From: Escherichia coli
Lineage (GTDB): Bacteria > Pseudomonadota > Gammaproteobacteria > Enterobacterales > Enterobacteriaceae
Strand: one strand, 5' to 3'
DNA length: 64,000 nucleotides
NCBI RefSeq assembly: GCF_030384885.1
Contig: NZ_CP128613.1
Translations under genes and position numbers: made by a program
Shown here: piece after piece, positions 7,866-9,730 of the stretch
Numbering within the stretch: the first letter of the stretch is position 1
How the letters are laid out: each line of letters starts with the position of its first letter
The notes under the pieces: model-generated
What the model saw: only the letters and a program-made list of their open reading frames with translations
Database searches by the model: none
Told to the model about the DNA's origin: nothing

Positions 7866-7979
7866 TTGCGCCAATGTGTAATTTGGCCCATTTTCATCGT
7901 TATTCGCCCATTTGCCCACATGCACAGTACGGGCTGCACGCTACGCTAATGCCATCAATACTGTGATGTGGAGCAAATC

Positions 7980-8756
7980 ATGAAAATTACTCAAATTCGT
8001 AATGCCACCCAAATTATCCAATACGCTGGCAAAACATTTCTTATTGACCCGTTACTCGCGCCTAAAGGAAGTTATCCGGGTTTTGCCGGAACGGCACGCG
8101 CAGAAATCCGCAATCCAACGGTAGAATTACCGTGTGATTTAACAACGTTACTCAACGTTGACGCCCTAATAGTGACCCATTTGCATGAAGATCACTGGGA
8201 CGAAACAGCCTCCCGCGTCGTCCCCAAAGATAAACAGATTTATGTGCAAAATGAGCAAGATGCTGAATCACTGCATAAACAAGGATTTACGCATCTTACC
8301 GTACTTGCCGACGAGACTAAATTTGGCGATATTACTCTGCATAAAACGACAGGGCAGCACGGCTCCGATCGCACCTATGCAGACCCGGCTATGGCGAAGC
8401 GTTTAGGCGCAGCCTGCGGCGTTGTTTTCCAGCACCCGACAGAGAAAACGCTCTATCTGGCTGGCGATACCCTCTGGCGTGATGACGTCGAGGCTACAAT
8501 GCTAACTTTCCAACCAGAAGTGGTGGTGTTGAATGCCGGATTTGCGCATGTTCTGGGGCATGGCGCGATAATTATGGGAGCTGAAGATATTCTCAAAACA
8601 CATTTTACCCTGCCAGAAGCGCAAATTGTCGCGACACATATGGAGGCCGTAAACCACTGTTTGCTGACGCGTGATGCGCTCAAGGAATACGCCAGAGATA
8701 ATCAAATTATCGAATTTGTGAACGTACCAGAAGATGGTGAAACGTTGACATTCTAA
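7980..8756 (+). CDS. MBL-fold metallo-hydrolase (possible lactonase / glyoxalase-II-like), function unknown
   Basis: 258 aa from ATG 7980 (GGAG 7 nt upstream); metal-binding motif THLHEDHWD (HxHxDH); no signal peptide. Confidence 0.75.
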   Translation: MKITQIRNATQIIQYAGKTFLIDPLLAPKGSYPGFAGTARAEIRNPTVELPCDLTTLLNVDALIVTHLHEDHWDETASRVVPKDKQIYVQNEQDAESLHKQGFTHLTVLADETKFGDITLHKTTGQHGSDRTYADPAMAKRLGAACGVVFQHPTEKTLYLAGDTLWRDDVEATMLTFQPEVVVLNAGFAHVLGHGAIIMGAEDILKTHFTLPEAQIVATHMEAVNHCLLTRDALKEYARDNQIIEFVNVPEDGETLTF

Positions 8757-8775
8757 TTCGGAGATAAAGAGTGTT

Positions 8776-9729
8776 ATGCGCCCGCTAACTGTTGCCATTA
8801 TCGCCGTTGCCGGTTTTAGTCCTTTTCACCTTTCCGTACCGTTTATCGTGTTTAGCGAAAAAATGGCGGAGAAAAAACGCTTTCATGTAATTATCTGCGC
8901 TGAAAAGCCGGGAAATGTGGACTCTGCCGATGGGTTTTCCGTAACCGCCACCCATGACTATACGGCAGTCATCCAGGCGGATATTGTGATAATTCCTTAC
9001 TGGGGAACAATTACACAAAAACCGCCACAAAAACTGCTGGAAGCCTTAACGACCGCACGAGATAACGGGGCACAGATTGTCGGGCTTTGCCTGGGCACGT
9101 TTGTGCTCGGCTATGCAGGTTTACTGAACAATAAGCGTGCTGCCACGCACTGGGAGTTCGAGCGTGAATTTCAGGCACGTTTTCCACAAACACATCTGGA
9201 TATTAACGCGTTGTATGTAGACGATGATGGCATTATTACCTCTGCCGGTACTGCCGCGGCGCTGGATTGCTGTTTGTATATTGTTCGGCAACATTTTGGC
9301 AGCGACTATGCTAACCATATTGCCCGACGGATGGTCGTACCGCCATATCGCACCGGCGGTCAGGCGCAGTTTATAGAGCAACCGGTGCCGAAAAATACCC
9401 ATGATGAACGCATTAACCTCCTGCTGGATTACCTGCGGCAAAACATTGCGCAACAGCATGATCTCGACTCGCTGGCTCAGCGAGTAATGATGAGTCGCCG
9501 CACACTAACCCGTCATTTTATGAAAGCGACCGGTTCGAGTATCGCCGAATGGCTCATCACTGAACGCTTACGCCGTAGCCAGGAACTGTTGGGATCCAGT
9601 CAGTTGCCCGTTGAGCGGATAGCGGCTGAGGTGGGTTTTCTCTCACCTGTGACCTGGCGTCAGCATTTTAAATCTCACTTCGGCGTCAGCCCCGCAGAAT
9701 GGCGCAAAACCTTTCGTGGTATGGCATGA
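8776..9729 (+). CDS. GlxA-family transcriptional regulator (N-terminal DJ-1/PfpI-like domain, C-terminal AraC-type HTH)
   Basis: 317 aa; N-terminal part has the nucleophile-elbow-like IVGLCLGTF; C-terminal RRTLTRHFMKATGSSIAEWLITERLRRSQELL... is a typical AraC HTH pair. Confidence 0.75.
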   Translation: MRPLTVAIIAVAGFSPFHLSVPFIVFSEKMAEKKRFHVIICAEKPGNVDSADGFSVTATHDYTAVIQADIVIIPYWGTITQKPPQKLLEALTTARDNGAQIVGLCLGTFVLGYAGLLNNKRAATHWEFEREFQARFPQTHLDINALYVDDDGIITSAGTAAALDCCLYIVRQHFGSDYANHIARRMVVPPYRTGGQAQFIEQPVPKNTHDERINLLLDYLRQNIAQQHDLDSLAQRVMMSRRTLTRHFMKATGSSIAEWLITERLRRSQELLGSSQLPVERIAAEVGFLSPVTWRQHFKSHFGVSPAEWRKTFRGMA

Positions 9730-9730
9730 T
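9703..9730 (+). promoter_or_regulatory. lacI promoter (-35 GCGCAA, -10 CATGAT)
   Basis: Sequence ggcgcaaaacctttcgtggtatggcatgat matches the classical lacI promoter with one substitution; it lies inside the 3' end of the upstream regulator gene. Confidence 0.7.

Follow-up and report, generated by a model that had tools for sequence, protein, structure and literature searches.

The 64,000-nucleotide window analyzed here (Escherichia coli, contig NZ_CP128613.1) contains two co-oriented genes between mhpR and lacI, which are the subject of this report. They encode a 258-amino acid (aa) protein with a metallo-β-lactamase (MBL) fold and a 317-aa protein that combines a DJ-1/PfpI domain with an AraC-type DNA-binding domain. 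The gene order in the window is mhpCBA (on the minus strand), mhpR, the gene for the MBL-fold hydrolase, the gene for the regulator, lacI, and lacZ. The pair is O-island 19 (OI-19) of enterohemorrhagic E. coli (EHEC) O157:H7, in which the hydrolase gene is called z0443 and the regulator gene z0442 or ovrA.

Positions 7980 to 8756, plus strand: gene for a SaxA-family MBL-fold hydrolase, orthologue of z0443 (258 aa, from the ATG at 7980 to the stop codon at 8756)
Positions 8757 to 8775, plus strand: intergenic spacer of 19 nt with GGAG at 8760–8763 (from the sequence)
Positions 8776 to 9729, plus strand: ovrA, orthologue of z0442, encoding a 317-aa protein of the GlxA/GATR (GATase1-domain AraC regulator) family with a GATase1/DJ-1-like sensor and an AraC helix-turn-helix

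For the hydrolase gene, the ATG at 7980 is the likely start rather than an alternative in-frame GTG at 7968, because GGAG is located 7 nt upstream of this ATG, the resulting residue 1 matches residue 1 of PDB entry 6BRM, and the RefSeq start is the same. The hydrolase gene and ovrA are probably carried on one transcript, given the 19-nt gap, the GGAG within the spacer, and the fact that a promoter and terminator scan predicted no terminator-like site between the two genes. An earlier note, which a model had made from the letters of this DNA, had already described both genes with their domains and two sequence motifs, and all of these were recovered. The intact HxHxDH metal motif (THLHEDHWD) comprises residues 66–74 of the hydrolase (nt 8175–8201), and the motif GLCLG with its elbow cysteine comprises residues 103–107 of the regulator (nt 9082–9096, with the codon of Cys105 at 9088–9090). 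Pfam returned Lactamase_B_2 (2.7e-11) for the hydrolase as well as DJ-1_PfpI (7.1e-12, residues 6–171) and HTH_18 (3.4e-19, residues 233–311) for the regulator. The location between two catabolic regulons, given in the same note, agrees with the flanking genes mhpR/mhpABC and lacI/lacZ.

The segment with both genes was found by megablast in 435 of 5426 complete E. coli genomes (about 8%), including O157:H7 and O145, and it is absent from K-12. For the comparison across species, one genome per species was sampled, which delivered 80 loci with a hydrolase relative at 52–80% identity from Citrobacter, Enterobacter, Klebsiella, Pantoea, Erwinia, Pectobacterium, Serratia, Photorhabdus, Providencia, Vibrio, Marinomonas, Aeromonas, and other genera. 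In 74 of these 80 other species, spread over more than 25 genera, a full-length OvrA orthologue (51–80% identity) lies directly downstream of the hydrolase gene on the same strand. The gap between the two genes is mostly 18–164 nt in the orthologous loci, and the flanking genes vary between genera. The nearest relatives of 6BRM (loci L080 and L089, 86–88% identity) share the arrangement. Because the pair recurs in so many E. coli genomes and the pairing is kept in most of the other species, the two genes are real and conserved and not chance open reading frames.

Family assignment of the hydrolase and the regulator

In a search of all PDB sequences, the alignment of the hydrolase with 6BRM ("metal-dependent isothiocyanate hydrolase SaxA") covered the full length (residues 1–258 against 1–259), with E = 2.8e-87 and 54% identity. 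The second strong match was the uncharacterized structure 3RPC (E = 1.8e-72), whereas all other MBL enzymes (UlaG-like and NAPE-PLD-like) matched only at E of about 0.01. The metal ligands H67, H69, D71, H72, H127, D163, and H220 do not vary between the window hydrolase, 6BRM, and six orthologues, and the same applies to E222, N225, H226, and C227. The O157:H7 protein differs from the window hydrolase by four amino acids. By its sequence, the hydrolase belongs to the SaxA family of isothiocyanate hydrolases, whose reaction is known and which is represented by a crystal structure. The earlier note had regarded both proteins as an uncharacterized pair with an open substrate, had favored a lactonase- or thioesterase-type enzyme, and had named the placement of the hydrolase in a characterized family as the result that would speak against this. 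The search of PDB sequences placed it in such a family, the regulator is the published OvrA of OI-19 (see below), and the lactonase or thioesterase reading is rejected since the strong structural matches are of the SaxA type. The cytoplasmic location without signal peptide, predicted in the same note, is in line with the alignment, as the hydrolase has no N-terminal extension and aligns from residue 1 with a cytoplasmic-type SaxA, unlike its Sphingobacterium homologues (L081 and L083), which have an extra hydrophobic leader.

Isothiocyanates (ITCs, also called mustard oils) are released from the glucosinolates of crucifers. According to two reports (PMC7036374, PMC7303113), SaxA enzymes are MBL-fold hydrolases that convert ITCs to an amine and carbonyl sulfide (R-N=C=S + H2O → R-NH2 + COS), and they form their own subfamily of five clusters that is widespread in Enterobacterales. 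The same reports describe two SaxA classes (CL2 and CL5) with 44.9% mutual identity, both of which protect Pectobacterium from crucifer defenses or confer ITC resistance in planta (PMC7036374, PMC7303113). The 54% identity between the window hydrolase and 6BRM exceeds that between these two validated classes. In Pseudomonas, saxA is induced by ITCs, and SaxC is described merely as "a transcriptional regulator." The SaxA enzymes of Pseudomonas syringae, Pectobacterium, and insect-gut Enterobacterales share with the window protein the length, the MBL fold, the HxHxDH motif with the further His, Asp, and His ligands, and the lack of a signal peptide. The window copy differs from them in that it comes from a gut commensal or pathogen and not from a plant pathogen, and in that the E. 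coli copy is annotated as "MBL fold metallo-hydrolase" or "hypothetical." The family is of modest size: a library of 1.84 billion representatives contains 185 clusters that match at E ≤ 1e-30. Judged from its relatives, the window hydrolase probably hydrolyzes ITCs, and it is referred to below as a predicted ITC hydrolase.

The regulator is identical to OvrA of O157:H7 strain F8092B in 316 of 317 amino acids, the sole difference being N118K, and the arrangement mhpR-[z0443-z0442]-lacI is the same in both genomes. By sequence and locus it is the OvrA (z0442) orthologue, and RefSeq names it either "GlxA family transcriptional regulator" or, in several genomes, "OI-19-encoded virulence regulator OvrA." Among PDB sequences, it matched isonitrile hydratase InhA (7e-13) and the DNA-binding domain of AdpA (3.8e-23). 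Cys105 aligns with the active-site cysteine of InhA, which we take to be the catalytic nucleophile Cys101. Invariant in the 74 OvrA orthologues are G103-L-C105-L-G107, T124-H125-W126, E129, H18, and the vicinal cysteines C165-C166. Architecture and elbow cysteine mark the protein as a GATR. Some more specific assignments were rejected: the score against the FtrA equivalog (NCBIfam NF006902) was 324.4 bits with a cut-off of 425, which indicates a related subfamily only, and the score against the GbdR equivalog was also below the curated NCBIfam cut-off. A stand-alone DJ-1 enzyme (glyoxalase III, TIGR01383, or isonitrile hydratase) was likewise rejected, as TIGR01383 gave 29.9 bits with a cut-off of 131 and the domain forms part of a DNA-binding protein.

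GATRs such as GbdR, CdhR, SouR, ArgR, and CahR sense small amine compounds and activate neighboring catabolic genes, and those with non-electrophilic ligands (betaine, carnitine, sarcosine, and creatine) often keep the elbow cysteine in a domain that is regarded as catalytically inactive (bioRxiv 10.1101/2021.11.02.466972). The window regulator resembles them (for example, CahR with creatinase) in its two-domain architecture, its elbow cysteine, and the position of its gene beside a hydrolase or catabolic gene, which here is the predicted target of activation. The known GATR ligands are nutrient amines or quaternary amines; for OvrA, the predicted ligand is a toxic electrophile, or the amine formed from it, and the predicted output is detoxification. 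A further difference is the order of the genes, since an enzyme gene followed by the regulator gene in one operon would imply positive autoregulation. As for OvrA itself, two reports (PMC10877973, PMC8565820) describe OI-19 of strain EDL933 as a 1834-bp segment with z0442 (ovrA) and z0443, and report that OvrA binds GACATTTAATGATAATG in the promoter of LEE1, part of the locus of enterocyte effacement (LEE), and activates ler.

The putative operator and a predicted isothiocyanate response

Upstream of the hydrolase gene, a conserved motif and a hexamer at a fixed distance from it were found.

Positions 7883 to 7922, plus strand: putative 40-bp operator, TTGGCCCnATnnCATCG-n5-TTGnCC-n5-GnCCAC, with two TTGnCC direct repeats 21 bp apart (position weight matrix, PWM)
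Positions 7942 to 7947, plus strand: putative −10 hexamer TACGCT of the hydrolase promoter (from the position of TAnnnT)

The operator has a PWM score of 46.4 in the window and scores of 18–55 in 75 of 81 loci, with a maximum of 1.3 for shuffled controls, and its match is unique within the 64-kb window. It is missing in three loci (L070, L081, and L083) that are also devoid of the regulator; the other low scorers (L049, L051, and L068) do carry one. A TAnnnT hexamer is found at motif positions 60–62 in 70 of 75 loci and only zero to two times at any other offset. No good −35 element was found for the hydrolase promoter, and about 4 bp of the operator would fall on the −35 position. The scan also gave no standalone consensus σ70 promoter on the plus strand upstream of the hydrolase gene, which fits an activator-dependent promoter and proves nothing.

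At araI, AraC binds direct repeats (I1-I2) that reach into the −35 position of a promoter with a weak −35. The motif described here is alike in having two direct half-sites 21 bp apart, of which the promoter-proximal one overlaps the −35 region. It differs in that the sensor domain of OvrA is DJ-1-like, whereas that of AraC is a cupin, and in that the binding of OvrA is a prediction. Positions 7883–7922 are the probable binding site of OvrA, and OvrA probably controls the hydrolase promoter through this site. In EDL933, z0443 is well expressed, and microarray data showed that loss of rpoS lowered its level 10-fold (PMC2907692). The hydrolase promoter would thus have a stationary-phase or stress input beside any control by OvrA.

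Taken together, the pairing in 74 of 80 species and the conserved operator upstream bear out the earlier view of a self-contained sense-and-detoxify pair. With a probability of roughly 0.6, we read the two genes as a self-activating operon of this kind directed at ITCs, a reading in which substrate, inducer, and binding site are all predicted. In this operon, a cytoplasmic, metal-dependent enzyme of the SaxA family would hydrolyze ITCs to a harmless amine and carbonyl sulfide. OvrA would sit on the 40-bp direct-repeat operator that overlaps the −35 position of the hydrolase promoter, and its DJ-1-like domain would be loaded either with the amine product or with an ITC, the latter possibly via Cys105 or Cys165-Cys166. 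Loaded OvrA would then switch on the operon and hence its own synthesis. We propose only tentatively, at somewhat less than even odds, that induction is by an ITC or by the amine derived from it. The operon would give z0443, a "hypothetical" gene of OI-19, a concrete and testable function and would provide OvrA with a candidate native target (its own operon with a defined operator) and a candidate class of ligands. The link to an ITC hydrolase and the operator for OvrA are new relative to the literature searched; the gene pair itself is already known as OI-19/OvrA.

In attaching-and-effacing E. coli, OvrA has, according to published work, also been recruited to activate ler, and in the lineage of the window only the native role would apply. 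From 14000 to 38000 (24 kb), the window matches E. coli 2013C-4282 (NZ_CP027579.1) with 100.0% identity. This strain carries stx1 and belongs to Escherichia cryptic clade I, and eaeA was not detected in any clade-I strain examined (PMC10100065). The window itself contains no LEE. The published target of OvrA, LEE1, is therefore probably absent in this lineage, which argues for a native role of OvrA here that is independent of the LEE.

An alternative with the same architecture invokes other chemistry: both proteins would be specific for a different small molecule (a further heterocumulene, lactone, or thioester), as substrate of the hydrolase and signal of the regulator, and ITC hydrolysis would be confined to other branches of the family. 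In its favor, no NCBIfam equivalog model names the hydrolase, the sole match being PRK00685 ("metal-dependent hydrolase") with 53.8 bits and a cut-off of 144, and the RefSeq product name is only "MBL fold metallo-hydrolase." In addition, 54% identity to the crystallized SaxA is below orthologue level, and the SaxA family is divided into five clusters. However, functional SaxAs that share just 44.9% identity both detoxify ITCs, the metal ligands and the residues E222, N225, H226, and C227 are unchanged between the hydrolase and 6BRM, and 6BRM-like enzymes share the same cassette and operator. On balance, a different substrate is unlikely.

Within the proposed ITC operon, the mode of sensing may also vary. 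ITCs are thiol-reactive electrophiles, which makes more pointed the suggestion of the earlier note that the sensor domain may react with electrophiles: in such a covalent sensor, Cys105 (or Cys165/166) would attack the ITC carbon, and the thiocarbamoylated domain would activate transcription. The place of Cys105 at the nucleophile elbow, its alignment with the InhA cysteine, and the complete conservation of Cys105, His125, and Cys165-Cys166 in the 74 orthologues are consistent with this sub-case. Against it stand the GATRs for betaine, carnitine, sarcosine, and creatine, in which the cysteine is often present and the domain is considered to have no catalytic activity. By analogy, the habit of the family favors non-covalent sensing of the ITC or its amine product by OvrA, and we regard the covalent variant as improbable.

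Several observations weigh against an ITC-responsive operon under the control of OvrA. No published enzyme assay or ITC phenotype of the E. coli hydrolase was found, nor any link of z0443 or OI-19 to ITCs, in the literature searched, which covered the OvrA experiments and the SaxA active site through secondary reports. Hydrolase homologues at 42–46% identity are not paired with an OvrA-type regulator, and the coupling is thus limited to the sampled gammaproteobacterial clade. The elbow cysteine is common in GATRs with non-electrophilic ligands and is for that reason weak evidence for covalent sensing. The two reports on OI-19 call the z0443 product hypothetical and state that deleting the gene had no effect on virulence (adherence) (PMC10877973, PMC8565820). 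Finally, the LEE1 footprint of OvrA is unlike the conserved operator, as its best partial PWM score was reached by 6% of shuffles. The published site is AT-rich and spans 17 bp, whereas the conserved operator is GC-rich and seemingly unrelated to it. The 17-mer is absent near the hydrolase gene, and its only match (with three mismatches) lies inside lacZ, at chance level. The mismatch would be explained if the operator were the site of another factor, or if OvrA bound LEE1 in a distinct AT-rich mode.

The diets of humans and cattle contain ITCs in abundance, and these compounds are being promoted for use against EHEC. A hydrolase that varies among strains (about 8% of complete E. coli genomes) could explain differences in ITC tolerance and, through OvrA, its cassette could connect the diet to LEE expression. 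More specifically, OvrA may be an ITC sensor through which dietary mustard oils or SaxA-made amines act as a host-diet signal to the LEE type III secretion island in EHEC, enteropathogenic E. coli (EPEC), and Citrobacter rodentium, perhaps covalently via Cys105 or Cys165-Cys166, so that OI-19 would be an ancestral detoxification cassette co-opted for virulence. This extension is doubtful. The proposed pair of a SaxA-type hydrolase and its cognate GATR activator offers a useful, testable bridge between plant-toxin detoxification and the regulation of EHEC virulence.

Ancestry of the cassette and the lacI promoter

E. coli K-12 MG1655 lacks window positions from about 7866 to 9696 (about 1.83 kb) and keeps the last 33 nt of ovrA, GAATGGCGCAAAACCTTTCGCGGTATGGCATGA (K-12 locus L002, 2112–2187, minus strand). 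In B2 strains (Nissle 1917, UTI89, and about 487 other genomes), the final 99 nt of ovrA persist beside lacI (L003, 1501–1599 in Nissle 1917), and the Prokaryotic Genome Annotation Pipeline (PGAP) annotates this remnant as a truncated GlxA-family pseudogene. In these strains the whole mhp cluster is missing and yaiL adjoins instead. Judged from the alignments, the B2 deletion is independent of that in K-12 and has a different left end. In Citrobacter, including the attaching-and-effacing C. rodentium, the cassette is located directly upstream of lacI-lacZ, and the divergence of its proteins (76–80% identity for hydrolase and regulator) is similar to that of LacI (81–84%). The differing ovrA remnants and the synteny in Citrobacter make K-12 a deletion derivative, with at least two independent deletions. 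By this comparison of sequences, the cassette is ancestral at the mhpR-lacI junction and old in Enterobacterales, and OI-19 is a deletion in K-12 and not an insertion in O157, which corrects an assumption about this island.

It is, accordingly, highly improbable that OvrA is a dedicated virulence regulator acquired horizontally on an O-island with z0443 as unrelated cargo: although the EHEC literature treats OI-19 as specific to O157 and OvrA as a LEE1 activator and reports unchanged adherence upon z0443 deletion, and although the GC content of the cassette (0.48–0.49) is slightly below that of its flanks (0.53), the pair is kept in 74 of 80 species, most of which are not known as attaching-and-effacing pathogens, the Citrobacter cassette has diverged like LacI, the ovrA remnants of 33 nt (K-12) and 99 nt (B2) come with different left breakpoints, no insertion scars (such as target-site duplications) are present at 7866 and 9730 while remnants persist in cassette-less strains, and the lineage of the window is reported to be eae-less.

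The end of ovrA coincides with a further element.

Positions 9702 to 9730, plus strand: classical lacI promoter, with −35 GCGCAA at 9702–9707 and −10 CATGAT at 9725–9730 (from the alignment with K-12 MG1655)

The assignment of the two hexamers and of the lacIq mutation site in the window follows the sequence of Calos from 1978. Within 9697–9730, the textbook lacI promoter is embedded in the final 10 codons and the stop codon of ovrA. Since K-12 keeps exactly this 33-nt tail, the classical lacI promoter is the scar of a lost gene. In cassette-bearing strains, ovrA transcripts may read through into lacI, since no terminator was predicted between the two genes.

Two observations concern relatives of the cassette at other locations. 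Metagenomic relatives of the hydrolase (42–46% identity) have as neighbors a MatE efflux pump, with overlapping genes, or an isochorismatase-family protein (L092/L093, 906–3018, and L095/L096, 3001–4309); elsewhere the neighbors were of no relevance. Moreover, the E. coli plasmid pTET-GZEC065 (IncY; L091, 4001–6192) carries a paralogous cassette, whose hydrolase and OvrA-like regulator are 63% and 58% identical to the window proteins. This cassette also contains an "ester cyclase" gene and has an operator variant upstream, and its regulator is annotated as "helix-turn-helix domain-containing protein." The plasmid type of the cassette is found on 128 Escherichia plasmids in PLSDB.

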